Source of the DNA: Oscillospiraceae bacterium
Lineage (GTDB): Bacteria; Bacillota; Clostridia; Oscillospirales; Acutalibacteraceae
Assembly: GCA_031270785.1 (NCBI GenBank)
Contig: JAISWM010000113.1
Span: 1-46,817, forward strand
Direction of reading: 5' to 3'
DNA length: 46,817 bases
Below, piece after piece: positions 630-46,817 of this stretch (the first letter of the stretch is position 1; every line of letters starts with the position of its first letter). The notes beneath the pieces are model-generated. The model ran no database searches and had not been told where the DNA came from. It worked only from the letters and a program-made list of their open reading frames with translations. A program made the translations under genes and the position numbers.

Positions 630-632
630 TTA

Positions 633-905: not shown

Positions 906-3509
906 ATGGCTGAAGCGTCTCCTATGATGAGCCAATATTTAAATATTAAGGAAAAATATCAAGATAGTATCTTGTTCTTCAGACTTGGTGATTTTTATGA
1001 AATGTTCTTTGACGATGCTAAATTAGTGTCTGAAGAACTTGACCTGACTTTAACCGGTAAAGATTATGGCCAAAAAGAAAGGGCGCCTATGTGCGGTATT
1101 CCTTATCATAGTTGTGAGGCATATATTGCAAGGCTTATTGCAAAAGGATATAAAGTTGCAATATGCGACCAAGTTGAAAATCCCGCTCAAACCAAAGGGC
1201 TTGTCAGAAGGGATGTAGTTAGAGTTATCACTCCGGGTACTGTTGTGGAGGACAGTATGCTTGAAGAAGGCAGAAATAATTTTATATGCTGCGTATATAG
1301 TTTGGAAGAATCCGCCGGCATTTGTTTTTGCGACGTATCCACGGGTGAACTTAAAACTACTAGGCTTAGCGGCGATGATGTGCTTATAAAACTTAAAAAT
1401 GAACTTGGCAGGTTTTGCCCCCGAGAAATTATTTTTGGCGGAAACAGTTCGTATTTTGGTCCTATCAAAAAATTTTCTATTGACAGGCTCGGTGTCAAAG
1501 CAGAAGAATTTGAAAAACAAAAATTTGATATTGATACATGCAAAAAATATATTTTAAAATATTTAGATAAAAACAGTATTAAAGGTTTTGAAATTAACGA
1601 TTACATCGAGGTTGTAAAAGCTGTTGGCGCGCTTATTTCGTATATTGAATATACTCAAAAAAAAGGCGTTGAAAGACTGCACAATATTGAGTTTTACAGC
1701 CAAAACCAATATATGGGATTAGGCCTTAATACAATGAGAAATCTTGAAATAGTAGAAACCATGAGAAATAAAGAAAAAAGAGGTTCTCTCCTTTGGGTTC
1801 TTGACAAAACTAAAACCGCTATGGGCAAGCGTTTGCTAAGGAGTTGGCTTGAAAGGCCGCTTGTCAGGTACGAAGAAATATTAAAAAGGCAAGAAGGAGT
1901 AGAAGAGCTTTTTTCTGATATTATTTTTAGAGAATCTTTATCGGAAGTTATGGCAAAGGTTAGAGATATCGGCAGATTGATGACAAGAATTATGTATGGT
2001 TTCGCCGCGGGCAGAGAGTTTAAGGCCCTTTCTAGCACTATATCTAATTTGCCGAAAATTAAAAAAGCTTTATCTAAAGCGGAATCTACTATTCTTAAAG
2101 ACATTTACGGGAATATTGATGAACTTCAAGACGTATTCCAAATTATTGAAGAATCCATCACAGAAAATCCTCCCGCTACTTTTAAAGAGGGCGGCATCAT
2201 AAAGGATGGTTACAGCGAGGAGGTTGACAGCTTTCGCAAAAACATGAACGGCGGCAAAGATATAATATTAAATGTTGAACGCGAAGAACGCAAAAAAACA
2301 GGTATCCCCAAACTTAAAGTAGGGTACAATAAAGTTTTCGGGTACTACATAGAAGTAACTAATTCATATAAGCATCTTGCGCCTGAATATTACATAAGAA
2401 AGCAAACTTTAGCAAACTGCGAACGATATATTACAAAAGAACTTAAAGATTTGGAAATACGTATTCTTGGAGCTAAAGATAAACTTAAAGAAATAGAATA
2501 TTCTATTTTTGAAGAAATAAGGCTTAAAGTTGCGGGGCAAATTAAACGTATTGAAAGAACTTCCGCTATGTTGGCTGTTCTTGACGTGCTTTTGTCTTTG
2601 GCTACGGTTGCCGCCAAAAATAATTATATTAAACCTATAATAAGCCGCGAAAAAAATATCATAATCAAAGAAAGCAGGCACCCTGTCGTTGAAGTATTAT
2701 TAGATGGCGCTCCTTTCGTGCCCAATAATGCCGCGCTTGATAACAGTGATCATACTGTCGCTGTTATTACAGGGCCTAATATGGCCGGTAAATCTACGTA
2801 TATGAGGCAAATTGCTTTAATTGTTCTTATGGCTCAAATAGGCAGTTTCGTCCCGGCGGGGCAAGCTGAAATCGGAATAGTCGATAATATTTTTACCCGT
2901 ATTGGCGCTTCGGACGATTTAACTTCCGGCCAATCTACTTTTATGGTAGAAATGAATGAAGTAGCCCACATTGTAAACAACGCCACGAAAGACAGTTTAC
3001 TGATTTTTGACGAAATCGGGCGCGGAACCTCCACTTTTGACGGTATGAGTATTGCAAGAGCCGTACTTGAATACGTGGCTGATAAAAATAAGCTTGGGGC
3101 TAAAACTCTTTTTGCTACCCATTACCATGAATTAACTTCCATGAGTGAATTTTTCCCCAATGTAAAAAATTATAATGTCGCCGTTAAAAAAAACGGTGAT
3201 GATATTATATTTTTAAGAAGAATTGTGCCAGGCGGCACAGATGATAGTTATGGCATAGAAGTTGCCAAACTTTCCGGCATTCCGGATTGGATTATTAATA
3301 GGGCTAAAAAAATTTTAAATGATATAGAAAAAAACAAAACCGATGATATACAGCATGTTCATAGTGAAAATATTAATGCAGTTCCTTCTGATTTTAGTGA
3401 TGAAATTACCCGCGTTGCTAATAAACTTAAAAATTTAGACGTTAGCGTTCTTACGCCGATAGAGTCTATGAATATACTGTTTGATTTAGTTAAATTAGTT
3501 AACAATTAG
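906..3509 (+). CDS. mutS: DNA mismatch repair protein MutS
   Basis: 867 aa. N-terminal SPMMSQYLNIKEKY, Walker A GPNMAGKSTYMRQ, STFMVEM and LIFDEIGRGTSTFDG motifs. GGAGG lies 6 nt upstream of the ATG. Confidence 0.97.
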   Translation: MAEASPMMSQYLNIKEKYQDSILFFRLGDFYEMFFDDAKLVSEELDLTLTGKDYGQKERAPMCGIPYHSCEAYIARLIAKGYKVAICDQVENPAQTKGLVRRDVVRVITPGTVVEDSMLEEGRNNFICCVYSLEESAGICFCDVSTGELKTTRLSGDDVLIKLKNELGRFCPREIIFGGNSSYFGPIKKFSIDRLGVKAEEFEKQKFDIDTCKKYILKYLDKNSIKGFEINDYIEVVKAVGALISYIEYTQKKGVERLHNIEFYSQNQYMGLGLNTMRNLEIVETMRNKEKRGSLLWVLDKTKTAMGKRLLRSWLERPLVRYEEILKRQEGVEELFSDIIFRESLSEVMAKVRDIGRLMTRIMYGFAAGREFKALSSTISNLPKIKKALSKAESTILKDIYGNIDELQDVFQIIEESITENPPATFKEGGIIKDGYSEEVDSFRKNMNGGKDIILNVEREERKKTGIPKLKVGYNKVFGYYIEVTNSYKHLAPEYYIRKQTLANCERYITKELKDLEIRILGAKDKLKEIEYSIFEEIRLKVAGQIKRIERTSAMLAVLDVLLSLATVAAKNNYIKPIISREKNIIIKESRHPVVEVLLDGAPFVPNNAALDNSDHTVAVITGPNMAGKSTYMRQIALIVLMAQIGSFVPAGQAEIGIVDNIFTRIGASDDLTSGQSTFMVEMNEVAHIVNNATKDSLLIFDEIGRGTSTFDGMSIARAVLEYVADKNKLGAKTLFATHYHELTSMSEFFPNVKNYNVAVKKNGDDIIFLRRIVPGGTDDSYGIEVAKLSGIPDWIINRAKKILNDIEKNKTDDIQHVHSENINAVPSDFSDEITRVANKLKNLDVSVLTPIESMNILFDLVKLVNN

Positions 3510-3534
3510 GTTGTGGATCAAATTAATTGATAAT

Positions 3535-3773
3535 AGACCTGTCCGTAAATCTCACAGAGCGCAAACTATCGAAAAATGCGTCACTTAAAAAATGGCTTTG
3601 CATCAAAATTTCCCGGGAAGTATCTTCATATGCCGTCGTCGATTTGGTAGTGGTCCAAATTAATTGATAATATCTTCCCCCCCCGCCATAGGCGGGGGGA
3701 AAAAGAAAAAATTTCAACTATTTTGGGACATGACCCAGATTTTAATTGCAATCTGTAAAATTTACGGACAGGT
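3535..3773 (+). mobile_element. MITE family C copy interrupted by a family B copy
   Basis: Termini AGACCTGTCCGTAAAT...ATTTACGGACAGGT. The C body is 3535-3645 plus 3737-3773. Confidence 0.8.
3646..3735 (+). mobile_element. MITE family B copy nested inside C
   Basis: GGTAGTGGTCCAAATTAATTGATAATATC...CAACTATTTTGGGACATGACC. Confidence 0.85.
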
Positions 3774-3856
3774 ATAATATCTTCCCCCCGCCATAGGCGG
3801 GGGGAAAGAAGGGATTTCAACTATTTTGAGACATGACCCAGATTTTAATTTAGAAA

Positions 3857-3973
3857 TATAGCTGTTTCGTTTGAAAAGTGTCTGATTTTTATAATTTTCT
3901 CCCGGCCGACGGCGGGGAGAAAGTACACGGATAAATTTACTTTTGAGAACTGTTTTAAATCGTAACAGCTATA
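3857..3973 (+). mobile_element. MITE family A copy
   Basis: TATAGCTGTTTCG...CGTAACAGCTATA, 117 bp. Confidence 0.9.
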
Positions 3974-3985
3974 GTTTAAACTTCT

Positions 3986-4026
3986 GCGGGGGAAAAAACA
4001 ACAATGCCACTGTTTCAAAAGGTTTG
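3986..4026 (+). repeat. Family D right-arm fragment
   Basis: GCGGGGGAAAAAACAACAATGCCACTGTTTCAAAAGGTTT matches the D right arm GGGGAAACAAAAATGTCACTGTTTCAAAAGGTTTTT. Confidence 0.55.
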
Positions 4027-4117
4027 GTGGATGGTGCCAATTAGTTGATAATATCTTCCCCCCCGCCATAGGCGGGGGGGAGAAAGAAGGGATTTCAACT
4101 ATTTTGGGACATGCCCC
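4026..4117 (+). mobile_element. MITE family B copy
   Basis: GGTGGATGGTGCCAATTAGTTGATAATATCTTCCCCCCCGCCATAGGCGGGGGGG...CAACTATTTTGGGACATGCCCC. The left boundary is uncertain by ~8 nt. Confidence 0.75.
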
Positions 4118-4156
4118 AGATTTTAATTGCAATCTGTAAAATTTACGGACAGGTCT
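4118..4156 (+). repeat. Family C right-end fragment
   Basis: AGATTTTAATTGCAATCTGTAAAATTTACGGACAGGTCT. Confidence 0.8.
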
Positions 4157-4219
4157 AATATCTCCCCCCCCACCATAGGCGGGGGGGAAGAAGGGATTTC
4201 AACTATTTTGGGACATGGC
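4157..4219 (+). mobile_element. MITE family B, right two-thirds
   Basis: AATATCTCCCCCCCCACCATAGGCGGGGGGGAAGAAGGGATTTCAACTATTTTGGGACATGGC. Confidence 0.75.
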
Positions 4220-4245
4220 AAACAATTAAGTTGGAGCTTAAATTT

Positions 4246-6081: not shown

Positions 6082-6085
6082 TTTT

Positions 6086-7042
6086 TTGAAATCAGATAAA
6101 ATACCTGTTATTTGTGTAGTAGGGCCTACTGCTTCCGGCAAGACGGACTTAGCCGTAAATATTGCAAAAAAAATGAGCGGCGAAATAATTTCGGCTGATT
6201 CTATGCAGATATATAAGGAATTTAATATATCAACCGCTAAACCGACTTTAAAACAGATGTGTGGCATCAAACATCATTGCATTGATATTGTTTCTGTTAA
6301 AGAAAATTTTAGTGTGGCAAAATATGTTAGTTTTGCCGAAAAAATTATAAAAGATATTTTTTCAATAGGTAAAATACCGATACTTTGCGGCGGAACCGGA
6401 TTATATATTGATTCTCTTATAAAAAATATACCTTTCGAGAAAGGGAAAACAAATATTTCGATAAGAAATAGAATTATTAATTATATAAATGTGAATAATG
6501 CGGGATATTTTTTTGATAAACTAAAAAAAATTGACCCTAGTAGCGCAAAAAAAATAAATATTCACGACCATAAAAGGATTTGCAGAGCTATAGAATTTTA
6601 TTATACAAATGGCTATCCGATATATAGGCAAGTTGAAAACTCTTTAAAATCCAAATCGTGCTATAATGTGTGCAAAATAGGGCTTAATTTTAAAGACCGC
6701 AATATACTTTATGATAGAATAAATAAGAGAGTGGATTTCATGGTTAAAAATGGTATTTTAGATGAAATTGCTTCGATTAAAGATATAGGGGATACAGCTA
6801 AATTTTCTATAGGATATAAAGAGCTATTGCCTTTTATTAACGCCGAAAGCTCTTTAAAAGAGTGCACAGAAAGACTTAAAATGGAAACCAGGAGATACGC
6901 TAAACGCCAAATCACTTGGTTTAAAAGAGACCTTAGCACTAAGTGGTTTAACGCGGATGAATATGAAAATGTTTCTAACCTGTTTTGCAATGTTCAAAAG
7001 TGCATTTTAGATAGTGGAATTTTAGGTCATGTCTCAAAATAG
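6086..7042 (+). CDS. miaA: tRNA dimethylallyltransferase MiaA
   Basis: P-loop VVGPTASGKT and GGTGLY motif, with a TTG start. The last six codons including the stop (GGTCATGTCTCAAAATAG) are the terminus of a family B element. Confidence 0.9.
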   Translation: MKSDKIPVICVVGPTASGKTDLAVNIAKKMSGEIISADSMQIYKEFNISTAKPTLKQMCGIKHHCIDIVSVKENFSVAKYVSFAEKIIKDIFSIGKIPILCGGTGLYIDSLIKNIPFEKGKTNISIRNRIINYINVNNAGYFFDKLKKIDPSSAKKINIHDHKRICRAIEFYYTNGYPIYRQVENSLKSKSCYNVCKIGLNFKDRNILYDRINKRVDFMVKNGILDEIASIKDIGDTAKFSIGYKELLPFINAESSLKECTERLKMETRRYAKRQITWFKRDLSTKWFNADEYENVSNLFCNVQKCILDSGILGHVSK

Positions 7043-7095
7043 TTGAAATCCCTTCTTTCACCCCCGCTGCAGGCTGGGAAAAGATATTACAAACC
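7025..7095 (-). mobile_element. MITE family B copy (truncated at the C junction), overlapping the miaA 3-prime end
   Basis: GGTCATGTCTCAAAATAGTTGAAATCCCTTCTTTCACCCCCGCTGCAGGCTGGGAAAAGATATTAC. Confidence 0.8.
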
Positions 7096-7339
7096 AGACC
7101 TGTCCGTAAATCTCACAGATCGCAAACTATCGAAAAAATGCATCACTTAAAAAATGGCTTTGCATCAAAATCTCCCGGGAAGTATCTTCATACGCCGTCG
7201 TCGATTTGGTAGTAGTCCAAATTAATTGATAAAATATCTTTCACCCCCGACTATGGCGGGGGTGAAAGAAGGGATTTCAACTATTTTATGGCGCGACCGT
7301 CGATTTTGATTGCAATCTGTAAAATTTACGAACAGGTCT
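7096..7339 (+). mobile_element. MITE family C copy carrying a nested B
   Basis: AGACCTGTCCGTAAATCTCACAG...TTTACGAACAGGTCT. The body is interrupted at 7208-7298. Confidence 0.85.
7208..7298 (+). mobile_element. MITE family B copy nested in C, with target-site duplication
   Basis: GGTAGTAGTCCAAATT...TTTTATGGCGCGACC, flanked by GTCGATTT at 7200-7207 and 7299-7306. The intact C copy at 33605 has a single GTCGATTT. Confidence 0.9.
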
Positions 7340-7341
7340 AC

Positions 7342-7457
7342 TATAGCTGTTTCGTTTGAGAAGCGTCTGATTTTTATGACTTTCTCCCAGCCGACGGCTG
7401 GGAGAAAGTACACGGATAAATTTACTTTTGAGGACTGTTTTAAATCATAACAGCATA
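7342..7457 (+). mobile_element. MITE family A copy (right terminus degenerate)
   Basis: TATAGCTGTTTCGTTTGAGAAGCG...AAATCATAACAGCATA. Confidence 0.85.
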
Positions 7458-7499
7458 ATTTAACCCGCAACCTAAATCGCTACATAAGGAATAGATTTT

Positions 7500-8732
7500 A
7501 TGAAACGTTCTTCAATTAAAAAAACTTTTTTATGGGTAATATTTATTTTGATATTTTTTTATTCTTTACATATTATTTATAAAAAAATTTATATAAACGT
7601 ATCTACTGAAACAATAACGCAAGTAACTATAGATGACGTTGTTGATTGTAAGTCTATAATTATTAGAAATGAAGATATAATATCAAGCGAAAATCAAATT
7701 TTTTTAAAATACTTTGTAGATAACGGCGAAAGGATATCAAAGGGGGATATTGTCGCTAAATGTTTTGATAGCCAAGAAGAAGCGATGTATAGCGCGGAAC
7801 TCAGCGATATAAAGAATGAACTTGAAACTATTCAAAAAGTCAGCTTAAATGATAATTTCGGCAGAGATTTAAGTTCTATAAGTAAAGACATAAATAACGA
7901 AATTAGAAATATTTTTTTAAAATGCGAGTACCTTGACATATATAAAAACAGAAAAAAAATAACAAACCTCTTGAATGAAAGGCAAAACGCGCTGGGAAAC
8001 GGAAATATATTTTCTAAGAGAGTGGAATATTTAAAATCCAGAAAATCAGAACTTGAAAAAATGATAAATTCTCAAACCCCAAATATATATTCTCCGTATG
8101 CGGGTTATTTTGTAAGCAAAACAGACGGATATGAAAAAACCGTAAATTATGAAGACATTAAAAAATTTGATTATAATGATATGATTTATGAAAATATTAT
8201 AAAAAATAAAGCGGATGAAAAAAACGCTATAGGTAAAATAATAAAATCTACCAAGTGGTATGTGCTTTGCTATGTTTCTGCCGGTGAAATATGTAATATA
8301 CAAGAAGGTATGGAGGTTAGCGCAAAATTTGCGTGCGAAAACGATTACATACCGGCTAAAGTTGAAAGAATAGTTAAAAATGAAGATGAAAATGATAGTT
8401 TAGTCATACTTTCCTGCGAATATATGAATAATAGATTATGTTTTACACGGCTTGAAAATATTTCCGTTAAAAAAACGTCTTATTCCGGTTTTAAAATTCC
8501 TAAAGAAGCTTTGCGATTTTACGAAGACAGTGGAGCCGCATATAAAGGAATATACGTAAAAAATGGTGCTAACTTGATCTTTAAAAAGATAAATATTTTA
8601 TATTCCGAGAATAATTTTATTGTAGCTGAAACTTTTAAAAATAGCGGCGGTAACGATGAAAAACCTTTAGCAAATGGCGATCTGGTGGTAGTTAACGGCA
8701 AAAATCTCTATGATGGGAAATGTGTGTTATAG
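7500..8732 (+). CDS. HlyD-like / membrane-fusion-like protein (N-terminal TM anchor, coiled coil)
   Basis: 410 aa. It has an N-terminal hydrophobic helix, a lipoyl-like segment GERISKGDIVAKCFD, a central coiled-coil-like region and a C-terminal beta-rich part. Family assignment is by pattern only. Confidence 0.45.
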   Translation: MKRSSIKKTFLWVIFILIFFYSLHIIYKKIYINVSTETITQVTIDDVVDCKSIIIRNEDIISSENQIFLKYFVDNGERISKGDIVAKCFDSQEEAMYSAELSDIKNELETIQKVSLNDNFGRDLSSISKDINNEIRNIFLKCEYLDIYKNRKKITNLLNERQNALGNGNIFSKRVEYLKSRKSELEKMINSQTPNIYSPYAGYFVSKTDGYEKTVNYEDIKKFDYNDMIYENIIKNKADEKNAIGKIIKSTKWYVLCYVSAGEICNIQEGMEVSAKFACENDYIPAKVERIVKNEDENDSLVILSCEYMNNRLCFTRLENISVKKTSYSGFKIPKEALRFYEDSGAAYKGIYVKNGANLIFKKINILYSENNFIVAETFKNSGGNDEKPLANGDLVVVNGKNLYDGKCVL

Positions 8733-8753
8733 CAAGAATTATTCAAAAATATC

Positions 8754-8840
8754 GGCTGTAGCCAAAATTAGTTGATAATATCTTTTTTCCTTGCCGATTT
8801 GCAGTGGGCGAAGAAGTTTTCCTCATTTTGAGACATAGCC
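8754..8840 (+). mobile_element. MITE family B copy (degenerate hairpin) with 8-bp TSD
   Basis: GGCTGTAGCCAAAATTAGTTGATAAT...TTTTGAGACATAGCC, flanked by AAAATATC at 8746-8753 and 8841-8848. Confidence 0.85.
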
Positions 8841-8889
8841 AAAATATCCTTGGAAAATTATGCTAACTCCAATTATAAATATCAGTTTG

Positions 8890-9065
8890 TATAGCAAAGA
8901 CCATTTAAAAACGTGTTATTATTTACATTCCACCCCCGCCACAGGCGGGGGGGAAGCTACATACAAAGCCATTTAAAATGTGGCATTATTTACATGTTTT
9001 TTCTCCCGCCGAAAGCCAGGGAGAAAAAACAAAAATGTCACTGTTTTGAAAAGGTTTTTACTATA
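8890..9065 (+). mobile_element. Family D element, dimeric (two hairpin modules)
   Basis: TATAGCAAAGACCATTTAAAAACGTGTTATTATTTACAT, then hairpin 1, a second left arm, hairpin 2, and AACAAAAATGTCACTGTTTTGAAAAGGTTTTTACTATA. Termini are inverted (TATAGCAAAxACC / GGTTTTTACTATA). Confidence 0.7.
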
Positions 9066-9177
9066 GCTATTTTGTTTGAAAAGCATCTGATTTTATAACT
9101 TTCTCCCGGCCGTCGGCCGGGAGAAAGTACACGGATAAATTTACTTTTGAGAGCTGTTTTAAATCGTAACAGTTATA
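9062..9177 (+). mobile_element. MITE family A copy sharing TATA with the end of D
   Basis: TATAGCTATTTTGTTTGAAAAGCA...CGTAACAGTTATA. Confidence 0.85.
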
Positions 9178-9183
9178 TATCTC

Positions 9184-9212
9184 TTGACTTATTACTTTTA
9201 ACATGTTATAAT
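9184..9212 (+). promoter_or_regulatory. SigA-type promoter of the deformylase gene
   Basis: TTGACT (9184-9189), a 17-nt spacer, then TGtTATAAT (-10 at 9207-9212, extended TG). Confidence 0.6.
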
Positions 9213-9245
9213 TAAATTAACAAAAAATTATATGGAGTGTTAAAA

Positions 9246-9878
9246 ATGAAAAAATTTCTTTCAATAATTTTTAGTCTTTCTTTGCTGCTTACTTCGGAAT
9301 TCAGTACCGGTGCAAAAGTGCTGGATGTGGTTAAATCTGACGACCCCATACTCAAAGAGTGTTGCCTTGAAGTTACGGGTTTTAATGAAGATCTAAGAAA
9401 ATTAATTGCTAACATGTGTGATACCATGAATAAATACGACGGTGTAGGACTCGCTGCGCCGCAAGTTGGGGAACGGAAGTGCGTCTTTGTAGTGAAATAT
9501 GGCAAAAAAGTAACCGAATATGTTAACGCGAAAATACTTAGTGAAGAAGGAGAACAAATTTCAACAGAAGGATGTATTTCCCTCCCCGGTTTATGGGGAG
9601 AAGTTAAAAGGCCCACATGCATAAGTGGAACAGCGTTTGATAAAAATGGGGAAAAATTCGACTTTGAGGCTGAAGGCGAGGAGGCACGAATTATATGCCA
9701 TGAATTCGACCATACGAGAGGAGTATTATTTACAAAAATTGCAAAACGTACTTATACAACCACACAAATCATTGTCAAGAATGTAGCTTGGGCGGTGGCG
9801 GTAGCTGGGGTATTAGCAATACTTGGGGGGTTGGCCAGACATTTTGCCTTCTCAAAGCCAAGCCCCAATCATGCGTAA
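9246..9878 (+). CDS. def: Peptide deformylase-like protein with N-terminal signal-like peptide and C-terminal TM helix
   Basis: PDF motifs GVGLAAPQVG, EGCISLPG and HEFDH. GGAG lies 8 nt upstream of the ATG at 9246 (the tracked ORF opens at GTG 9237). N-terminus is MKKFLSIIFSLSLLLTSEFSTGA and the C-terminus contains VAWAVAVAGVLAILGGLA. Confidence 0.85.
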   Translation: MKKFLSIIFSLSLLLTSEFSTGAKVLDVVKSDDPILKECCLEVTGFNEDLRKLIANMCDTMNKYDGVGLAAPQVGERKCVFVVKYGKKVTEYVNAKILSEEGEQISTEGCISLPGLWGEVKRPTCISGTAFDKNGEKFDFEAEGEEARIICHEFDHTRGVLFTKIAKRTYTTTQIIVKNVAWAVAVAGVLAILGGLARHFAFSKPSPNHA

Positions 9879-9906
9879 ACTTCCAATAAAGTGTAAAATA
9901 AAAACA

Positions 9907-9998
9907 CACTTTAGAAACGTGTTATTATTTACATGTTTTTCCCCCGCCTTCGGCGGGGGGGGAGAAAGAAGAAGTTTCAATTATTTTGAGACATAACC
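9907..9998 (+). repeat. Chimeric element: D left arm joined to B right arm at the shared hairpin
   Basis: CTTTAGAAACGTGTTATTATTTACATG (D arm), then TTTTTCCCCCGCCTTCGGCGGGGGGGGAGAAAG, then AAGAAGTTTCAATTATTTTGAGACATAACC (B arm). Confidence 0.7.
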
Positions 9999-10035
9999 GC
10001 CGATTTTGATTGCAATCTGTAAAGTTTACGGACAG
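9999..10035 (+). repeat. Family C right-end fragment
   Basis: GCCGATTTTGATTGCAATCTGTAAAGTTTACGGACAG, cut short by the adjacent A copy. Confidence 0.75.
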
Positions 10036-10036
10036 C

Positions 10037-10153
10037 TATAGCTGTTACGATTTAAAACAGCCCTTAAAAGTAAATTTATCTGTGTACTTTCTCCCAGCCG
10101 TCGGCTGGGAGAAAGTCATAAAAATCAGACGCTTTTCAAACGTAACAGCTATA
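10037..10153 (-). mobile_element. MITE family A copy (reverse orientation)
   Basis: TATAGCTGTTACGATTTAAAACAG...TTTTCAAACGTAACAGCTATA. Confidence 0.9.
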
Positions 10154-10191
10154 TAATATTTATAATTGAAATTAGTATGATACAATGATTC

Positions 10192-10279
10192 GGTAGTGGT
10201 CCAAATTAATTGATAATATCTTTCCTCCCCGCCTGTGGCGGGGGGGAAGAATGGATTTCAACTATTTTATGGCGCGACC
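10192..10279 (+). mobile_element. MITE family B copy, full length, with 8-bp TSD
   Basis: GGTAGTGGTCCAAATTAATTGATAATATC...CAACTATTTTATGGCGCGACC, flanked by AATGATTC at 10184-10191 and 10280-10287. Confidence 0.92.
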
Positions 10280-10305
10280 AATGATTCAGAGGTGTGTGAT
10301 AGACA

Positions 10306-10917
10306 TTGAATATATTTAGTAAATTATTTAACAAAAGTAAAAATATTAGCAGTATTAATTATATGGTGGCGGGATTAGGCAATCCGGGGCTTAGATATGA
10401 AAACACAAGACATAATGCGGGGTTTTTAGTTGTTGACTATATTTGTAAACAGAATAATATAAAATTAAATTTAAATAAATTTGACGGAGTATACGGATAC
10501 GGATATTTAAGCGGAAGTAAAATTTTGTTTTTAAAACCGCAAACATTTATGAATAAAAGTGGAGAATGTATTTCAAAAATGATGTCTTATTATAAAATAC
10601 CTCCTGAAAAAGTAATTTTGATTTTTGATGATATTTTATTACCGGCAGGAAAAATAAGGGTAAGAAGAAACGGTACTCACGGCGGGCATAATGGAGTAAG
10701 AAATATAATAGATTTATCATCCAGTAGTCAATTCCCCAGAGTAAAAGTAGGTGTTGGGCAAAAGCCCAATGAAGATTGGGACTTAGCTGACTGGGTTTTA
10801 TCTAAATTTTCAAAAGAGGAAAGCGATGCCATAGAAGGCGCTGTGAAAAGCGCAGAAAAAACGGTAAATCTTATTATAGACGGTAATATAGATCAGGCAA
10901 TGTCACTTTATAATTAA
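10306..10917 (+). CDS. pth: Peptidyl-tRNA hydrolase
   Basis: GLGNPGLRYENTRHNAGF and HGGHNG motifs. A TTG start at 10306 follows GAGGTG. An alternative ATG at 10363 would give the canonical MVAGLGNPG N-terminus. Confidence 0.9.
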   Translation: MNIFSKLFNKSKNISSINYMVAGLGNPGLRYENTRHNAGFLVVDYICKQNNIKLNLNKFDGVYGYGYLSGSKILFLKPQTFMNKSGECISKMMSYYKIPPEKVILIFDDILLPAGKIRVRRNGTHGGHNGVRNIIDLSSSSQFPRVKVGVGQKPNEDWDLADWVLSKFSKEESDAIEGAVKSAEKTVNLIIDGNIDQAMSLYN

Positions 10918-11096
10918 ATTGCTTTCAGCATTAAGGCAAAAGATTTGATTTCGACTAAAACCGACTAAAATACAAAAAATATCAACGTTTAATTGTACCT
11001 AATTTTATTTTTTATATCTTCTGTGTTTGAAAATAGCTATATGAGTAAATAATCGCCCCACTATCAAGCGGGAGCGATAATTGCCAAAATTTATAC

Positions 11097-11240
11097 TATA
11101 GCTGTTCCGCTTTACAATAGACCATAGAAATTATGTATAACTATTGTTCTTGAAAAGGGTACACAGGCAAGCTTTTCCCCCACAGGCTTAGCGGGAAAAA
11201 ACTTCTAAAATTGGGACTTTTTTAAAGCGGAACAGCTATA
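11097..11240. mobile_element. Family A-related variant (144 bp)
   Basis: TATAGCTGTTCCGCTTTAC...TAAAGCGGAACAGCTATA. It has the same termini as A, a different interior and a weaker central palindrome. Confidence 0.65.
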
Positions 11241-11655
11241 ATTTGGACCATCGTCTATTTTTACGTACTTGGTGTAGCAGACTTGTTCGAAAAGGGGGAT
11301 ATATTTTTCGAAGTTGCATATTATGCATGAAATTGTGCTTGATTTAATTGTGAATTTTCGTTTTTTTAAAAGAACTTTGCCTTATCATTTGCTTTGATAC
11401 ACTACCGGACATTGAAATTTGCTATAAGTTCGTGGGGAATGTAAATCTACCGTATATGTCAAGAAAGCTGAAGCATCAAATGTTAAAATCTTTCGGCAGG
11501 GAAGAAAATCAAAAAGAAAGGTGCGTCTCTGCAGGTTAAAATAAAGTGGTATTAATAATTGCAGGGTCACAGCAAACAAAAAACACTTCAAAACCAAAGG
11601 TAAGGTTTCAAAATGTTTCAATCTTCGGCGTCAGTTCCCTTAACTAACGCCACAC

Positions 11656-11732
11656 TGGTCGAGGCAGCGGGACTCGAACCCACGGCTTCTACGTCCCGAA
11701 CGTAGCACTCTACCAAACTGAGCTATGCCTCG
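11656..11732 (-). tRNA. tRNA-Pro (anticodon CGG), CCA encoded
   Basis: The reverse complement CGAGGCATAGCTCAGTTTGGTAGAGTGCTACGTTCGGGACGTAGAAGCCGTGGGTTCGAGTCCCGCTGCCTCGACCA folds as a 77-nt cloverleaf. Acceptor is CGAGGCA/TGCCTCG, anticodon loop TTCGGGA, T-loop TTCGAGT. Confidence 0.92.
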
Positions 11733-11740
11733 GCAATATA

Positions 11741-11829
11741 GGTCGTGTCCCAAAATAGTTGAAATCCCTTCTTCTCCCCCGCCATAGGCGGGGGGGAAAA
11801 GATATTATCAACAAATTTGGCCCACAACC
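11741..11829 (-). mobile_element. MITE family B copy inserted in the tRNA-Pro leader, with 9-bp TSD
   Basis: GGTCGTGTCCCAAAATAGTTGAAATCC...ATCAACAAATTTGGCCCACAACC, flanked by GGCAATATA at 11732-11740 and 11830-11838. Confidence 0.9.
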
Positions 11830-11850
11830 GGCAATATAAACACATTTGGA

Positions 11851-11879
11851 ATTTTACTGCTTTGTGAATGAAAAATCAA
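11851..11879 (-). promoter_or_regulatory. Candidate promoter of tRNA-Pro
   Basis: On the minus strand: TTGATT (11879-11874), a 17-nt spacer, then TAAAAT (11856-11851). Without the B insertion this would sit ~20 nt upstream of the tRNA 5-prime end. Confidence 0.5.
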
Positions 11880-12124
11880 CCAATTTAAGTCTTTCCGGTA
11901 GAACAAACGCATGAAAACGTGATCAATCAGCTTTTAATAAAATTTTTGCTCCCGCCCGCCTATCCCCGATGCAGAGTATGCGGGGCATTACGGCGGGCTT
12001 GCATGCTTCCCTCGAAAACACACGCTCGCAAAAATCAATGAATACACAGCCTAGAAGGTCGGGGAATTAAACCCAATTTAGATTAAATTACCATGCGCTC
12101 TGGGCTTTAAATAAGTAAATCACC

Positions 12125-12793
12125 TCAAACTGCTGGTAAATCACCATCTTTTAAAGCCAAAATTCTATCCGCTGTTTGGTTTGCAAATCCGGTATCGTGC
12201 GTAACAATTAAAATTGTATAATTTTGCTTTGATAATTTTTTAATAATTTCTGTTAATTCTTCAACAAGTTCCGGGTCAAGCGATGAAGTCGGTTCATCGA
12301 ATAAAATTATGTCCGGATTTAAGATTAACGCTCTTGCGATTGCAGCGCGCTGTTTTTGACCGCCCGATAAATTTGACGGAAAAGAATTTTGAACATTTTC
12401 GAGTTTAAACTGCTTTAATAATTTTTGAGAAACGTCAAAAATCGCTCGGGTTTCATACATTTTTGCATTTAATGCCGGAATTTCAATATTCTCTTTCACT
12501 GTCAAGTGCGGAAACAAATTAAAATTTTGAAATATAAGGCCTACTTTTTTAAGAATTTTAGATGTGTTTTTTACGTAAATCCCGTCCTTAACCAAACAAT
12601 TATCTTCGATTTTTATGCTTCCCGAATCAATTTTTTCAAGCCCTGCAAGGCATCTTAAAAAAGTGGTTTTGCCTTCACCGGATTTGCCTGTAATTGCTGT
12701 AATTTCACCGTTTTGCGCGGAAAAATTAATATTTTTTAAAATCTCTTTTCCGCCAAAATTTTTACACAAATTAACTGTTTCGATAGTTTTCAT
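12125..12793 (-). CDS. Amino-acid ABC transporter ATP-binding protein
   Basis: Walker A GKSGEGKTT, signature LSGGQKQR, Walker B IILFDEPTS. The start overlaps the upstream gene stop by 1 nt. Confidence 0.92.
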   Translation of the reverse strand: MKTIETVNLCKNFGGKEILKNINFSAQNGEITAITGKSGEGKTTFLRCLAGLEKIDSGSIKIEDNCLVKDGIYVKNTSKILKKVGLIFQNFNLFPHLTVKENIEIPALNAKMYETRAIFDVSQKLLKQFKLENVQNSFPSNLSGGQKQRAAIARALILNPDIILFDEPTSSLDPELVEELTEIIKKLSKQNYTILIVTHDTGFANQTADRILALKDGDLPAV

Positions 12794-14262
12794 TATATTT
12801 TACCTCCGCACGAAAATTTTCTTTCTAATTTTTTGAATATTTGAACAAGAATCATGCAAATCGCCAGATATATTGCACCTGCGATAACATAATTTGTTAC
12901 ATTTGCTGTTGAATTTACTAAATTTTTAGTGTTTGAGAGCAGTTCCGGTACGCCAATTGCAAAGATTAAAGCCGTATCTTTAACGAGCGTTACACATTCG
13001 TTACAAATCGTGGGCAGTGTTATGCGAAAAATTTGCGGCAGCAAAATTTTGAAAAGTGATTGCGTTTTTGAAAATCCTAAAACTTGAGCCGCTTCGCTTT
13101 GACCTTTGTCAATCCCCAGAAAACCACCTCTGAAAATTTCCGCAAAATACGCGGCATAATTCAAAGCAAAAGTTAAAACGCCTGCTGAAAATCGGTCTTT
13201 GATAGTTAAATATTCACCGATTATCGGAATATACGGCAAGCCATAAAATACGAAAAATAATTGTAGCAGCAATGGTGTTCCGCGCATTATGTTAGTGTAA
13301 GCTTTTATTAAAAATTTCAAGATTTTATTTTTTGAATTTTGCAGTATACATAAAATCAAGCCTAAAGGAAGCGAGAAAATTGTGGTCAGCGAAAAGATTT
13401 TTAAGGTGACCCAAAGGCCTTGAATGAGAGGTGCTATGCTTAAATTTTTACTTTTAGAGGGAACTTCATCAGAAGCCGTTTTTGAATTTTCCCAGAAAAA
13501 TAGATTTGTGCCGAACCATTTCTGTGAAATTTCTTTTGCTTTTCCTGATTCTTTCATGGCTGAAAGTCCATTTTCAATCTCGTTTTTTAATTCTTCATTG
13601 TTTTTCTTTACGGCTATAACGTAATCTTCCGTTGAAATTTCTTGGTTTAAAACTTTGAAATTGCCCGCAAGACCTTTTTCGTTTAAGTAATATTTTGCAA
13701 CCACTTCATCAACAACAGTTACATCAGATGTAAACTTTTCAATCTCGTTTAAGCAATTCACCATATTTTCAAGTTCGATAATGTTTCTAACTTGACTGCT
13801 GATTTCGTGATTTTTAAACGCATCTGCACCGGTCGAACCTTTTTGAACGCAAACACTTTTGTTTTTTAAATCTTCTAAATTTTCGATTGTAGAATTTTTG
13901 TTAACAATGATAATTTGCCGATTTTTCATATAAGGTTTTGTTAAAAGCATGCTTTGCTCACGCTGCGGAGTTTTGCTCATTCCGTTCCAAATAACATCAA
14001 TTTTGCCGGAATTAATCTCAAGCTCTTTTGCGTCCCAGTCAATCGGCTGAAAAATCACTTTTTTACCTGAAAAAACTTCTTTTGCTAAATCAATGTCAAA
14101 CCCGACAATTTCATTGTTTTCGCTCAAAAAACCCATCGGCGGAACGTTTACGTCCAATCCTATGACAATTTCATTTTTTAAGGCTGCTGCTGTTTTAAAA
14201 TTAAACACACACGCGCTGAAAATCAGCCAAAAACACGTTACTAAAATTTTTTTAAGTTTCAT
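12793..14262 (-). CDS. Amino-acid ABC transporter, fused substrate-binding domain and permease
   Basis: 489 aa. A signal peptide is followed by a family-3 type SBP segment (IVIGLDVNVPPMGF, IDVIWNGM) and a C-terminal polar-amino-acid permease with an EAA-like loop (SEAAQVLGFSKTQSLFKILLPQ). GGAGG lies 9 nt upstream. Confidence 0.88.
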   Translation of the reverse strand: MKLKKILVTCFWLIFSACVFNFKTAAALKNEIVIGLDVNVPPMGFLSENNEIVGFDIDLAKEVFSGKKVIFQPIDWDAKELEINSGKIDVIWNGMSKTPQREQSMLLTKPYMKNRQIIIVNKNSTIENLEDLKNKSVCVQKGSTGADAFKNHEISSQVRNIIELENMVNCLNEIEKFTSDVTVVDEVVAKYYLNEKGLAGNFKVLNQEISTEDYVIAVKKNNEELKNEIENGLSAMKESGKAKEISQKWFGTNLFFWENSKTASDEVPSKSKNLSIAPLIQGLWVTLKIFSLTTIFSLPLGLILCILQNSKNKILKFLIKAYTNIMRGTPLLLQLFFVFYGLPYIPIIGEYLTIKDRFSAGVLTFALNYAAYFAEIFRGGFLGIDKGQSEAAQVLGFSKTQSLFKILLPQIFRITLPTICNECVTLVKDTALIFAIGVPELLSNTKNLVNSTANVTNYVIAGAIYLAICMILVQIFKKLERKFSCGGKI

Positions 14263-14318
14263 TATTAAAATCCTCCATATAATTTTTTAAAGACAAAAAA
14301 ATACAACACTCAGGAATT

Positions 14319-14411
14319 GATAGTGGATCAAATTAATTGATAATATCTTTCTCCCCTGCCGATTCGCGGGGGGGGGGATAAGAAGGTATTTCAACTGTTT
14401 TGAGACACGAC
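14319..14411 (+). mobile_element. MITE family B copy in the 5-prime UTR of the ABC operon, with ~9-bp TSD
   Basis: GATAGTGGATCAAATTAATTGATAATATC...CAACTGTTTTGAGACACGAC, flanked by TCAGGAATT at 14310-14318 and 14412-14420. Confidence 0.88.
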
Positions 14412-14420
14412 TCAGGAATT

Positions 14421-14650: not shown

Positions 14651-14670
14651 CAATCACAAATATCAGTTTG

Positions 14671-14775: not shown

Positions 14776-14835
14776 TCCGTTACTTTCCCCGCAGGCTCGC
14801 GGGGGAAGCAAATCAAACACATATCAGATTTTAAT
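14776..14835. repeat. Hairpin module plus ATCTGATATGT-type arm
   Basis: CTTTCCCCGCAGGCTCGCGGGGGAAG followed by CAAATCAAACACATATCAGATTTTAATTTTAGAAATA. The arm recurs in reverse at 36921-36945 and 36992-37012. Confidence 0.5.
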
Positions 14836-26296: not shown

Positions 26297-26380
26297 TATA
26301 GTAAAAACCTTTTAAAACAGCGATATTTTTGTTTTCCCACCCGCGAGTCGGCGGTGGAAAGAAACGTAAATAATGGTTAT
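26297..26380 (-). mobile_element. Family D element (reverse orientation)
   Basis: TATAGTAAAAACCTTTTAAAACAGCGATATTTTTGTTTTCCCACCCGCGAGTCGGCGGTGGAAAGAAACGTAAATAATGGTTAT. Confidence 0.75.
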
Positions 26381-26381
26381 G

Positions 26382-26463
26382 GGTCACATCAGTTGATAAT
26401 ATCTTTCCCCCAGCTAAAACGCGGAAAAAAAAGAAGGAGTTTCAATTGTTTTGAGACACGGCC
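26382..26463 (+). mobile_element. MITE family B copy (degenerate hairpin)
   Basis: GGTCACATCAGTTGATAATATCTTTCCCCCAGCTAAAACGCGGAAAAAAAAGAAGGAGTTTCAATTGTTTTGAGACACGGCC. Confidence 0.75.
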
Positions 26464-26478
26464 TTCAACGTTTTGGGG

Positions 26479-26568
26479 GGGTGATGCCAAATCAGTTAAT
26501 AATATCTTTTCCCCCCGCCCAAGGCGGGGGAAAAAAAGAAGGGATTTCAACTATTTTGAGACATAGCC
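26479..26568 (+). mobile_element. MITE family B copy
   Basis: GGTGATGCCAAATCAGTTAATAATATCTTTTCCCCCCGCCCAAGGCGGGGG...CAACTATTTTGAGACATAGCC. The left end GGTGATGC is the most IS1-like in the window. Confidence 0.85.
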
Positions 26569-27858: not shown

Positions 27859-28063
27859 TAAAGCTGTTTCACTTGAAAAATGGTCATGTCTAAAAATAGT
27901 TGAAATTTCTTCTTTCACCCCCCGCCAGCTCGCGGGGAGAAAGATATTATCAACTAATTTGAACCACTACCTGAAAAATGCATGCTCATTTGTGCATTCT
28001 TTCCCTGGGGGCCTGCGGGGAAAGAGTTACAGGAGTTTATATTTTTTAAGTTAAACCACTATA
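27859..28063 (+). mobile_element. Family I element (~107 bp) interrupted by a family B copy
   Basis: TAAAGCTGTTTCACTTGAAAAAT, then the B insertion, then GCATGCTCATTTGTGCATTCTTTCCCTGGGGGCCTGCGGGGAAAGAGTTACAGGAGTTTATATTTTTTAAGTTAAACCACTATA. An uninterrupted paralog lies at 43846-43954. Confidence 0.8.
27882..27971 (-). mobile_element. MITE family B copy nested in I, with 8-bp TSD
   Basis: GGTCATGTCTAAAAATAGTTGAAATTTC...ATCAACTAATTTGAACCACTACC, flanked by TGAAAAAT at 27874-27881 and 27972-27979. Confidence 0.92.
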
Positions 28064-39986: not shown

Positions 39987-40078
39987 GGCCATGTTTCAAA
40001 ATAATTGAAATCCTTTCTTTATTCCCCCCGCCATGGGCGGGGGGAAAAGAATATTATCAATTAATTTGGGCCACCACC
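39987..40078 (-). mobile_element. MITE family B copy with 8-9 bp TSD
   Basis: GGCCATGTTTCAAAATAATTGAAATCC...ATCAATTAATTTGGGCCACCACC, flanked by AAAAAAATT at 39978-39986 and 40079-40087. Confidence 0.85.
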
Positions 40079-41107: not shown

Positions 41108-41309
41108 GGCCATGTCTCAAAATATAGCTGTTATGATTTAAAACAGTCCTCAAAAGTAAATTTATCCGTGTACTTTCTCCCAGCCGTCGGCTGGGAGAAA
41201 GTTATAGAAATTAGACGCTTTTCAAACGAAACAGCTATAGTTGAAATTCCTTCTTCCCCCCCGCCTACGGCGGGGGGGAAGATATTATCAATTAATTTGG
41301 ACCACTACC
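41108..41309 (-). mobile_element. MITE family B copy split by a family A insertion at its internal TA
   Basis: GGCCATGTCTCAAAATA (41108-41124), then A, then TAGTTGAAATTCCTTCTTCCCCCCCGCCTACGGCGGGGGGGAAGATATTATCAATTAATTTGGACCACTACC (41238-41309). Confidence 0.88.
41123..41239 (-). mobile_element. MITE family A copy nested in B with a TA duplication
   Basis: TA at 41123-41124 and 41238-41239 flanks the core TAGCTGTTATG...AACAGCTA. The B consensus has a single TA at this position (CAAAATAGTTG). Confidence 0.9.
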
Positions 41310-42400: not shown

Positions 42401-42482
42401 AAAATTCGAGGCAGTTTCGATAATGTTCCCCCCCGCCATAGGCGGGGGGAAAAGATATTATCAACTAATTTGACCCACTACC
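42401..42482 (-). mobile_element. Family B-prime variant (B left arm and hairpin, alternative second arm AAAATTCGAGGCAGTTTCGATAATGTT)
   Basis: AAAATTCGAGGCAGTTTCGATAATGTTCCCCCCCGCCATAGGCGGGGGGAAAAGATATTATCAACTAATTTGACCCACTACC. Confidence 0.75.
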
Positions 42483-42572
42483 GCATCATAATAACACTAA
42501 ATTAATGAAATGTCGATATATTTTTTTGAAAATTAATATGATTTGTTTAGTGTGCTTTTTCGGCCTTTACAC

Positions 42573-42655
42573 AAAATTCGAGGCAGTCTCGATAATGTTC
42601 CCCCCCCGCCATAGGCGGGGGGAAAAGATATTATCAATTAATTTGGACTACTACC
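42573..42655 (-). mobile_element. Family B-prime variant copy
   Basis: Near-identical to 42401-42482. Confidence 0.75.
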
Positions 42656-42735
42656 AAAATTTGAGGCAATCTCGATAATGTTCCCCCCAGCCATAGGTGG
42701 GGGGAGATATTATCAACCAATTTGACCCACTATCC
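42656..42735 (-). mobile_element. Family B-prime variant copy
   Basis: AAAATTTGAGGCAATCTCGATAATGTTCCCCCCAGCCATAGGTGGGGGGAGATATTATCAACCAATTTGACCCACTATCC. Confidence 0.7.
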
Positions 42736-42810
42736 ACGTTTTTAAATGGTTTTGGCTATATATTTGAAAATGAATATAATTTATTTAATGTGCTTTTTCG
42801 ACCTTTACAC

Positions 42811-42893
42811 AAAATTCGGGGCAGTCTCGATAATGTTTCCCCCCCGCCATAGGCGTGGGGAAAAGATATTATCAATTAATTTGGACTACTACC
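42811..42893 (-). mobile_element. Family B-prime variant copy
   Basis: AAAATTCGGGGCAGTCTCGATAATGTTTCCCCCCCGCCATAGGCGTGGGGAAAAGATATTATCAATTAATTTGGACTACTACC. Confidence 0.75.
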
Positions 42894-42975
42894 AAAATTC
42901 GGGGCAGTTTCGATAATGTTCCCCCCGCAAGTCGGCGTGAAAAAAAATATTATCAACCAATTTGGCCCACTATCC
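42894..42975 (-). mobile_element. Family B-prime variant copy (degenerate hairpin)
   Basis: AAAATTCGGGGCAGTTTCGATAATGTTCCCCCCGCAAGTCGGCGTGAAAAAAAATATTATCAACCAATTTGGCCCACTATCC. Confidence 0.65.
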
Positions 42976-43639: not shown

Positions 43640-43729
43640 GGTAGTGGTTCAAATTGATGGATAATATCTTCCCCCCCCGCCTATGGCGGGGGGGAAAAGA
43701 AGGGATTTCAACTATTTTGACCCACAACC
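43640..43729 (+). mobile_element. MITE family B copy, full length, with 8-bp TSD
   Basis: GGTAGTGGTTCAAATTGATGGATAATATC...CAACTATTTTGACCCACAACC, flanked by GATGTTTT at 43632-43639 and 43730-43737. Confidence 0.92.
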
Positions 43730-43991: not shown

Positions 43992-44083
43992 GGTAGAGTG
44001 GGCCAAATTAATTGATAATATCTTTCCACCCCGCCTATGGCGGAGGGAAAAGGAAGGAATTTCAACTATTTTATGGCGCGACC
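43992..44083 (+). mobile_element. MITE family B copy
   Basis: GGTAGAGTGGGCCAAATTAATTGATAATATC...CAACTATTTTATGGCGCGACC. Flanks share GCTCGGG at 43985-43991 and 44085-44091. Confidence 0.85.
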
Positions 44084-45769: not shown

Positions 45770-45863
45770 GGTTGTGGGTCAAATTAATTGATAATATCTC
45801 TTCCCCCCCCCGCCGAAGGCGGGGGGAGAAAGAAAGAATTTAAACTTATTTTGAGACATAACC
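45770..45863 (+). mobile_element. MITE family B copy nested in another B, with 8-bp TSD
   Basis: GGTTGTGGGTCAAATTAATTGATAATATC...AAACTTATTTTGAGACATAACC, flanked by TTTTTTGG at 45762-45769 and 45864-45871. Confidence 0.88.
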
Positions 45864-46088: not shown

Positions 46089-46177
46089 GGTTGTGGGCCA
46101 AATTAATTGATAATATCCCTCCCCCGCCTTCGGCGGGGGGGAGAAAGAAAGAATTTAAACTATTTTGAGACACGACC
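46089..46177 (+). mobile_element. MITE family B copy (second unit of a ~330-bp composite duplication)
   Basis: GGTTGTGGGCCAAATTAATTGATAATATCCCTCCCCCGCCTTCGGCGGGGGGG...AAACTATTTTGAGACACGACC. Confidence 0.85.
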
Positions 46178-46408: not shown

Positions 46409-46546
46409 TTGAAGCATTTTGTGACTATTGCCGAAGGCAATCAGCAAAAAGACATTAAAAAAATAGGTTGCGGAGAATGCCAGGCGTCTTGCCAGTCGGC
46501 ATGTAAAACTTCTTGCACAGTAGCAAACCAAAAATGCGAAAAATAG
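46409..46546 (+). CDS. scfA: SCIFF ranthipeptide precursor (six cysteines in forty-five residues)
   Basis: Not in the ORF track because it is under 60 aa. A TTG start lies ~8 nt after AAGGAGG. The 45 codons read (M)KHFVTIAEGNQQKDIKKIGCGECQASCQSACKTSCTVANQKCEK, matching the conserved GCGECQxSCQSACKTSCTVxNQxCE core. Confidence 0.9.
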   Translation: MKHFVTIAEGNQQKDIKKIGCGECQASCQSACKTSCTVANQKCEK

Positions 46547-46635
46547 GTCATGTCTCAAAATAATTGAAATCCCTTCTTTCACCCCCGTGTTTCAGTGGTG
46601 GGAGAAGATATTATCAATTAATTTGGACCACAACC
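46546..46635 (-). mobile_element. MITE family B copy starting at the last base of the SCIFF stop codon
   Basis: GGTCATGTCTCAAAATAATTGAAATCCC...ATCAATTAATTTGGACCACAACC. Confidence 0.88.
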
Positions 46636-46641
46636 GAAAAA

Positions 46642-46730
46642 GGTTATGTTTCAAAATAATTGAAACTTTTTCTTTTTCACCCCGCCGTCGGCGGGGTGAA
46701 AGATATTATCAGCTAATTTGACCCACAACC
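46642..46730 (-). mobile_element. MITE family B copy (second of three in tandem)
   Basis: GGTTATGTTTCAAAATAATTGAAACTTTTTCTTTTTCACCCCGCCGTCGGCGGGGTGAAAGATATTATCAGCTAATTTGACCCACAACC. Confidence 0.88.
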
Positions 46731-46737
46731 GAAAAAT

Positions 46738-46817
46738 GGTTATGCCTCAAAATAATTGAAATCCCTTCTTTCACCCCCGCGTTCTAGTGGTGGGGGAAGA
46801 TATTATCAACTAATTTG
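46738..46817 (-). mobile_element. MITE family B copy (third in tandem, runs off the window)
   Basis: GGTTATGCCTCAAAATAATTGAAATCCCTTCTTTCACCCCCGCGTTCTAGTGGTGGGGGAAGATATTATCAACTAATTTG. Confidence 0.85.

Follow-up and report, generated by a model that had tools for sequence, protein, structure and literature searches.

The B copy at positions 10192-10279 is bounded by direct repeats of 8 bp, and this locus raises two questions: is the repeat family to which it belongs (family B) a true MITE, and do its ends come from the IS1 family? The first-pass annotation of this DNA had answered both in the affirmative. The window, i.e. the whole stretch of DNA that was analysed, is an entire contig of 46,817 bp from an uncultured Clostridia organism. 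Its MutS shares 59-64% identity with that of MAGs that carry the labels Ruminococcus, Oscillospiraceae and Acutalibacteraceae, and 81-84% with that of three related genomes. The contig carries the housekeeping genes ylbF, mutS, mutL, miaA, an HlyD-like gene, def, pth and an ABC transporter, as well as a 3,701-aa ORF, aroA, ppk, rluD, lspA, udg, a 5S rRNA gene and a gene for tRNA-Pro (11656-11732, minus strand). No transposase gene was found within the 46,817 bp, and no IS1-family transposase or remnant. A total of 6,819 bp consists of interspersed repeats (14.6% of all positions in the window, 56% of the non-coding ones), and only 102 of these repeat bases lie inside ORFs. The GC content of the window is 36%, compared with 30% in the sister genomes.

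The gene order also differs from that of the relatives. The lspA-rluD-ppk block (34789-39561 in the window, 20941-22625 in the related locus L001) is inverted and relocated. In the relatives it comes after hlyD-sepF-divIVA-ileS, and in the window both edges of the block hold MITE clusters.

Structure, copies and flanking repeats of family B

A copy of family B is about 90 bp long and consists of an X arm, a GC palindrome and the reverse complement of a Y arm (Y'). The arms are imperfect terminal inverted repeats of 31-33 nt (X, GGTAGTGGTCCAAATTAATTGATAATATCTT; Y, GGTCATGTCTCAAAATAGTTGAAATCCCTTCTT) and the central palindrome is typically CCCCCGCC-NNN-GGCGGGGG, with a loop that differs between copies. 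The motif common to X and Y, GGTnnTGnnnCAAAWTARTTGAWA, has 18 matches in the window and none in 100 shuffles. The termini had been described as GGT(A/T)GTGG(T/G)(T/C)CAAA. This is right for the X arm, GGT(A/T)GTGG..CAAATTAATTGATAAT, but the opposite end is different and reads GGTC(A/G)TGTC(T/C)CAAAATAGTTGAAAT (Y arm). Two smaller details also had to be corrected: the flanked elements measure 87-94 bp and not 88-91 bp, the length given for full-length copies, and the end GGTGATGCCAAATCAG..., placed at 26479, starts at 26480. With this length the flanked elements are within the size of MITEs, which are non-coding and shorter than ~300 bp. No ORF of at least 100 aa starts in a B copy, and host ORFs run into B copies only at 7025-7042 and 43992-44083. 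Four copies were folded, and each forms a single end-to-end hairpin (-34 to -45 kcal/mol, z -3.7 to -7.2); in RNAalifold on 17 copies, indels scramble the hairpin columns.

With an HMM built from the ten flanked copies, we found 17 full-length and about 20 partial copies in the window (Table 1). All ten flanking pairs reported by the first-pass annotation were recovered at their positions, nine of them exact and one (43984/44084) matching at 7/8. The scoring of target-site duplications (TSDs) that it had proposed was run on the window: exact abutting repeats of 8-9 bp were seen at nine of the 17 full-length copies, while eight had no clean TSD. Among 200,000 random position pairs of the same spacing, about 0.3% were exact, a control value that is inflated by the tandem arrays in the window. 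Six of the exact TSDs are 8 bp long and three are 9 bp long. Since the flanking repeats are all different and AT-rich, they fit target-site duplications and not repeat sequence.

Table 1. Copies of family B, nests, hybrids and neighbouring MITE families in the window
Positions	Strand	Feature	Flanking duplication	Remarks
10192..10279	+	B copy that raised the question (X arm, GC hairpin, Y' arm)	exact 8 bp, AATGATTC, 10184-10191/10280-10287	HMM 84.5; hairpin -34.3 kcal/mol, z -3.7
7208..7298	+	B copy within family C MITE copy	8 bp, GTCGATTT, 7200-7207/7299-7306	uninterrupted C site ...CGTCGTCGATTTTGATTGC... in 33596-33752
8754..8840	+	diverged B copy	8 bp, AAAATATC	arms 75% identical to consensus
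11741..11829	-	B copy adjoining tRNA-Pro upstream	9 bp, GGCAATATA, 11732-11740/11830-11838	
14319..14411	+	B copy	9 bp, TCAGGAATT	non-canonical ends GAT...GAC
27882..27971	-	B copy	8 bp, TGAAAAAT	
39987..40078	-	B copy	9 bp, AAAAAAATT	
43640..43729	+	B copy	8 bp, GATGTTTT	top HMM score, 86.2
43992..44083	+	B copy	7/8, AGCTCGGG vs GGCTCGGG	
45770..45863	+	B copy	8 bp, TTTTTTGG	inside 314-bp segmental duplicate (repeat family D3) also holding 46089-46177
46089..46177	+	B copy in segmental duplicate of 45770-45863	degenerate, flanks CTTTTTGG / TTTTTTTG	indel in T run
26375..26568	+	two neighbouring diverged B copies (26375-26463, 26480-26568)	no TSD	HMM matches
46546..46817	-	three head-to-tail B copies (46546-46635, 46642-46730, 46738 to contig end)		spacers GAAAAA or GAAAAAT
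3509..4220	+	712-bp nest, B X end (3509) to B Y' end (4220)	8 bp, AACAATTA, 3501-3508/4221-4228	holds C, Z and B copies 3646-3735 and 4027-4116
7025..7472	-	outer B copy interrupted by nested C (with B inside) and Z	no clean TSD	Y end 7025; X' remnant AATTTAACCCGCAACC ends 7472; boundaries inferred
41108..41309	-	B copy split by Z-family MITE at TA in Y arm	no TSD for B copy	CAAAA-TA-[TAGCTGTT...AACAGCTA]-TA-GTTGAAAT
42426..42973	-	five core-bearing B X' arms, linked to a short left arm of another kind; 170-240-bp repeat array (D12)		partial HMM matches, positions 1-58
9896-9998 (9931..9998, +), 30581-30639, 33483-33583 (33524-33583)		hybrids of TATAGC-type family arm, common core and B Y' arm		junction exactly at GC-palindromic core
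1-120, 3857-3976, 7342-7461, 10037-10164, 39587-39714, 41123-41250, 45897-46016, 46211-46330		family Z MITE, ~120 nt		ends TAGCTGTT...AACAGCTA; core TCCCAGCC-GAC-GGCTGGGA
33596-33752 (33603-33748; intact); 3527-3782 (3534-3781), 7084-7344 (7090-7340), 43298-43370 (interrupted or partial)		family C, ~150 nt		17-bp perfect terminal inverted repeats TAGACCTGTCCGTAAAT

Two of these sites deserve a comment. In the head-to-tail array at 46546-46817 the spacers resemble the flanking sequence GAAAAATA, and the array arose either by repeated insertion at one target or by unequal exchange between TSDs. On the tRNA-Pro strand, the duplicated TATATTGCC of the 11732-11838 site holds a -10-like TATATT. The insertion of B upstream of tRNA-Pro may have moved the original -35 region away from the tRNA.

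Empty sites and altered gene ends

Two kinds of empty site are available for comparison. The paralogous one is in family C, whose copy at 33596-33752 is intact, with ...CGTCGTCGATTTTGATTGC... and no B. In the C copies 7084-7344 and 3527-3782, B stands directly after GTCGATTT, and a second GTCGATTT follows behind the 7208 copy. C copies that carry B at this one internal position recur, which points to multiplication of the C-with-B composite itself.

The orthologous empty site is between mutS and mutL. In three related genomes the spacers ylbF-mutS, mutS-mutL, mutL-miaA and miaA-hlyD are 19, 16, 4 and 12 bp long, whereas in the window they are 276, 721, 4 and 457 bp long. Across mutS-mutL the relatives, L001 and L004 included, read ...TTAGTTAATAATTAAGTTGG... 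with a 16-bp spacer, and the filled site in the window reads ...TTAGTTAACAATTA|GGTTGTGG...712 bp...GACATGGCA|AACAATTAAGTTGG... (the nest in Table 1). Both kinds of empty site hold exactly one copy of the duplicated sequence. No B copies were found in the relatives L001-L006 by nhmmer with the B model, and their 54 kb contain no GC hairpins of the B-core kind, compared with 47 in the window.

The insertions also reach into genes. The stop codon of mutS lies on the insertion junction, and the TAA of the relatives has become TA plus the first G of B (TAG). Downstream of it, the Y arm of the outer B copy at 7025..7472 supplies the last five codons and the stop of miaA (ORF end 7042), so that the protein ends in ...SGILGHVSK* and not in ...SGILN* as in the relatives. 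This comparison indicates that a MITE insertion rewrote the 3' end of miaA.

The TSDs, the paralogous and orthologous empty sites, the presence of many copies between genes and the absence of coding capacity confirm the earlier claim of a true MITE, and we are nearly certain that family B is one. The same data bear on a different reading, according to which B is a REP/BIME-like or other structured repeat that was spread by recombination, slippage or a RAYT-type tyrosine enzyme and has acquired its flanking repeats incidentally. Such an origin would agree with the very stable central hairpin in every B copy and the fold of the whole element, with the occurrence of the same core in families with different arms, with hybrids joined at the core and with the tandem arrays. 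However, REP-type spread makes no varied 8-9-bp duplications abutting defined termini, and these were seen at nine of the 17 B copies and at the nest. The empty sites with a single target copy and the match of the terminal 24 nt of B to IS1 ends also speak against it, and Rfam, searched at gathering score and at E<=1, gave no relevant family for B, with no match near the gathering score. The REP/RAYT reading is largely refuted by the empty-site and TSD data and we consider it highly improbable.

The hairpin-bearing elements might also serve mainly as functional units between genes, for example as intrinsic terminators or as stem-loops that stabilise mRNA, with a secondary likeness to IS ends. 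Their repeat bases are almost wholly non-coding (6,717 of 6,819) and they have strong GC stems. Yet in positions 1-15000 we counted 15 terminator-like sites, which is not above the 11.5 +/- 3.7 in shuffles. Two of the 15 fall in full-length B copies, and only one consists of the central hairpin with a T tail. A reading of B as an intrinsic terminator was not supported. Moreover, the sister genomes manage with spacers of 4-19 bp and no such hairpins. A function may have been gained after insertion, but it would not account for the TSDs or the ends of B. We regard a primarily functional origin as very doubtful, and family B is treated as a MITE in what follows.

Terminal sequences and the IS1 family

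From the features common to X and Y we derived the degenerate pattern GGTNNTGNNNCAAAWTARTTGAWAW and used it to scan one genome per GTDB species, which returned at least 20 matches. Among the matches listed, five are in gut Clostridia MAGs (two in Lapin-002__bin109, two in MAG226 and one in Ruminococcus sp. RUG10751). All five are ends of IS1-family elements, four of them with InsA and/or InsB homology. Two elements (L016 and L023) contain an InsA ORF (Zn ribbon PF03811, HTH PF12759) and an InsB ORF (DDE_Tnp_IS1 PF03400), with InsB following in the -1 frame behind seven consecutive A, a slippery A7 between the frames. Two others (L020 and L015) show InsB homology only, and the fifth (L007) comprises just 77 nt of the element and was assigned to IS1 by its end sequence. 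The remaining 15 matches listed lie inside unrelated genes and have no IS1 homology. Among the matches listed, the true IS ends found with the B-derived pattern are IS1-family only.

A search of JGI metagenomes with the InsB of these elements gave 80 loci, in 63 of which both ends were resolved. These 63 IS1 relatives are 733-1076 bp long, mostly ~810-870 bp, and most of their ends begin GGTRRTGTC..AAA...GTTGA. Their TSDs are 8 bp long in L061, L065, L069, L074 and L109 (GAAAATTC) and 9 bp long in L050. The mixture of 8- and 9-bp TSDs in family B is the same, which supports an IS1-family ancestry. The clostridial IS1 relatives retain the two-ORF hallmark of IS1, and in four of them (L108-L111) a promoter-like pair TTGACA...TATAAT lies partly within the IRL.

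A position weight matrix was made from 80 ends of 40 metagenome IS1 elements, without reference to B. Genuine IS1-clade ends scored 23.5 +/- 3.9 bits and in-register B ends mostly 14-32 bits, whereas shuffled B ends scored -32 +/- 10 with a maximum of 6.2; in the whole window, 42 of ~94,000 24-mers reached 15 bits or more. The likeness is also seen in direct alignments. The Y end of B matches the InsB-side end (IRR) of the Lapin-002__bin109 IS1 element at 24 of 30 nt, and over IRR ends in general the Y arm reaches 21-22/26 as a consensus and 24/30 for individual copies. At the Lapin-type end, where the C-terminus of InsB is encoded, the IS reads ...TCA ACT ATT TTG TGA and B reads ...TCA ACT ATT TTG AGA. 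The X arm matches the IRR of E. coli IS1A at 18 of 26 nt (chance is 27% identity per position), and none of the sampled IS1 IRLs was above 18/26 with it. The E. coli IS1 ends quoted in the first-pass annotation were correct, both being present in the RefSeq IS1A copy of 768 bp. An ISAba3-like element of the IS1 family, with the TIR GGTGGTGTTTCAAAAAGTATGCTG and 8-bp TSDs, has ends of the same type as B (PMC6382973).

We also considered whether B was mobilised by a transposase of the IS6/IS26 or IS1595 family. IS1595-family elements have GG(n)3TG-type ends and make 8-bp duplications. The arms of B match the 14-bp IS6/IS26 consensus GGTTCTGTTGCAAA (PMC6807381) at 10/14, about as well as the IS1-clade consensus over the same 14 nt, and therefore the first 14 nt of B do not discriminate between IS1 and IS6/IS26. 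Indeed, GGnnnTG is common to the ends of both, as pointed out by Harmer and Hall, and two MITEs of the IS6 family are listed in ISfinder (PMC6807381). Of the perfect B TSDs, six have the 8 bp reported for IS6/IS26 (PMC6807381), but three are 9 bp long, at copies with canonical or near-canonical ends. The conserved G10 of IS6 is missing from all 28 B ends examined (T in 15, C in 11, A in 2), and the similarity of B to the IS1 clade runs on through positions 15-24 (A/T-TAGTTGAAA), while IS6 conservation ends at 14. The IS1-only outcome of the pattern scan points the same way. In addition, IS26-type movement goes only via cointegrates (PMC6807381), a poor route for the amplification of a 90-bp element. 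We consider mobilisation by one of these other families unlikely.

Taken together, the pattern matches, the scores within the range of genuine ends and the 8/9-bp TSD mix support the earlier view that the termini of B are of IS1 type, and on this sequence evidence family B is probably of IS1-family ancestry. As a non-autonomous MITE of ~90 bp, B probably descends from an IS1-family insertion sequence or was assembled on the ends of one.

Through the InsB closest to that of the Lapin-type element (P0124, 92%), full elements were recovered, including the IS1 element closest to the Y arm. Its IRL, GATAATGTCTCAAAGGTATTGACAAG, is not X-like, and among the IS1 elements examined none has both an X-like IRL and a Y-like IRR. 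The central hairpin with its GC core is absent from the IS1 elements examined, so B did not arise from them by simple internal deletion. Cores homologous to that of B are found in the window's other MITE families. By nhmmer, no B copies are present in the IS1-bearing MAG loci or the 80 metagenome IS1 loci; arm-specific pattern scans of viral contigs gave 0 matches, and blastn of PLSDB plasmids with the B consensus gave chance matches only.

An InsAB'-type DDE transposase from an IS1-family element, present elsewhere in the genome or formerly present, would bind the B arms, cut at the GG termini and integrate B by a staggered cut of 8-9 bp. B would have been amplified from several diverged master copies, and this amplification was presumably tolerated since the insertions lie between genes, where the spacers are very short, some of them at or within stop codons. 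The history of the copies can be judged from their arms, which are on average 79% identical (range 63-94%). If this divergence had accumulated after insertion, an estimated ~18% of the 8-bp pairs would be expected to be perfect, and over half were. An arm identity of 79% together with more than half of the TSDs perfect argues for several diverged masters rather than old decay, and several master lineages behind the B copies are the more likely explanation. One such lineage is exemplified by the Y2 end GGTCGCGCCATAAAATAG, which is common to the 7208, 10192 and 43992 copies.

Nests, a common core and relation to known elements

Most partial B copies are nested insertions, and later insertions of other MITEs into B, and of B into other MITEs, would have produced the nests and the partial copies. 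C elements interrupt B X arms at 3533/3534 and 43297/43298. A Z element splits a further B copy (41108..41309), and here a TA duplication is visible, reminiscent of the targets of IS630/Tc1-type elements. Tandem arrays of other hairpin-bearing repeats occupy 27029-27704 and 42347-43002; one has a period of 105 bp and six or more units, and the other has units of 170-240 bp in which B X' arms occur.

A homologous palindromic core, YTTYC-C4-7GCC-NNN-GGCG4-7-GRAAR, is present in at least five repeat families whose arms differ. These families include elements with IS1-type ends and 8-9-bp TSDs and at least one TA-duplicating type (Z). Across the families the loops vary and the stems are intact. 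The hybrid elements (Table 1) would fit an exchange between families at the core, by recombination or by template switching. We suggest only tentatively that the MITE families here arise modularly, with different IS ends capturing a common core or recombining onto it, or that the core is selected for a function in the host or in transposition; either could accompany a lineage-specific burst. If true, such a burst would have taken the genome from spacers of 4-19 bp to a state in which repeats occupy over half of the non-coding DNA. For transposon biology, this core, common to families whose ends differ, gives a way to test how MITE families originate.

In family B, an uncultured lineage of gut Clostridia has a MITE family with ends of IS1 type, for which both filled and empty sites are documented. 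The expansion appears to be very recent and lineage-specific, as sisters with 81-84% MutS identity have no MITEs in the compared regions. It changed gene ends, with the mutS stop rebuilt and the miaA C-terminus replaced, and it probably seeded rearrangements. For annotation, such repeats are a nuisance which breaks assemblies, gives false ORF extensions and inflates intergenic length.

We found no description of an IS1-derived MITE or of clostridial MITEs in the searchable literature. B is one more representative of an element type that is already known, a probable IS1-derived MITE, and the density, the nesting and the core common to families with different ends are less ordinary than family B itself. 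With the IS1 family (E. coli IS1A and the clostridial clade in Lapin-002__bin109, MAG226 and Ruminococcus sp. RUG10751) it shares the ends GGnnnTG...CAAA...TTGA(A/T)A, duplications of 8-9 bp and AT-rich targets, and its Y arm aligns with the InsB-side end. It differs in its length of ~90 bp, in having no insA/insB and in its GC-palindromic interior, which is absent from the IS1 elements examined. IS6/IS26 ends and their MITEs (MITEBth2, MITEHarch3; PMC6807381) resemble B in GG at positions 1-2, G at 7, CAAA at 11-14 and 8-bp TSDs, but B is without G10, has 9-bp TSDs too and shares positions 15-24 with IS1-clade ends. Like the classical MITEs, i.e. Correia/NEMIS of Neisseria, RUP of Streptococcus pneumoniae, MITEAba12 of Acinetobacter (PMC6382973) and the ISL3-type elements of Microcystis (PMC11448079), which are ~90-190 bp long, B has IS-matching terminal inverted repeats, TSDs and a whole-element stem-loop, and it is intergenic, multi-copy and sometimes fused to gene ends. 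Their parents are IS630, IS5-like or ISL3 elements, whereas the parent family of B is probably IS1; in addition, the local density is much higher and the core of B is shared with co-resident MITE families.
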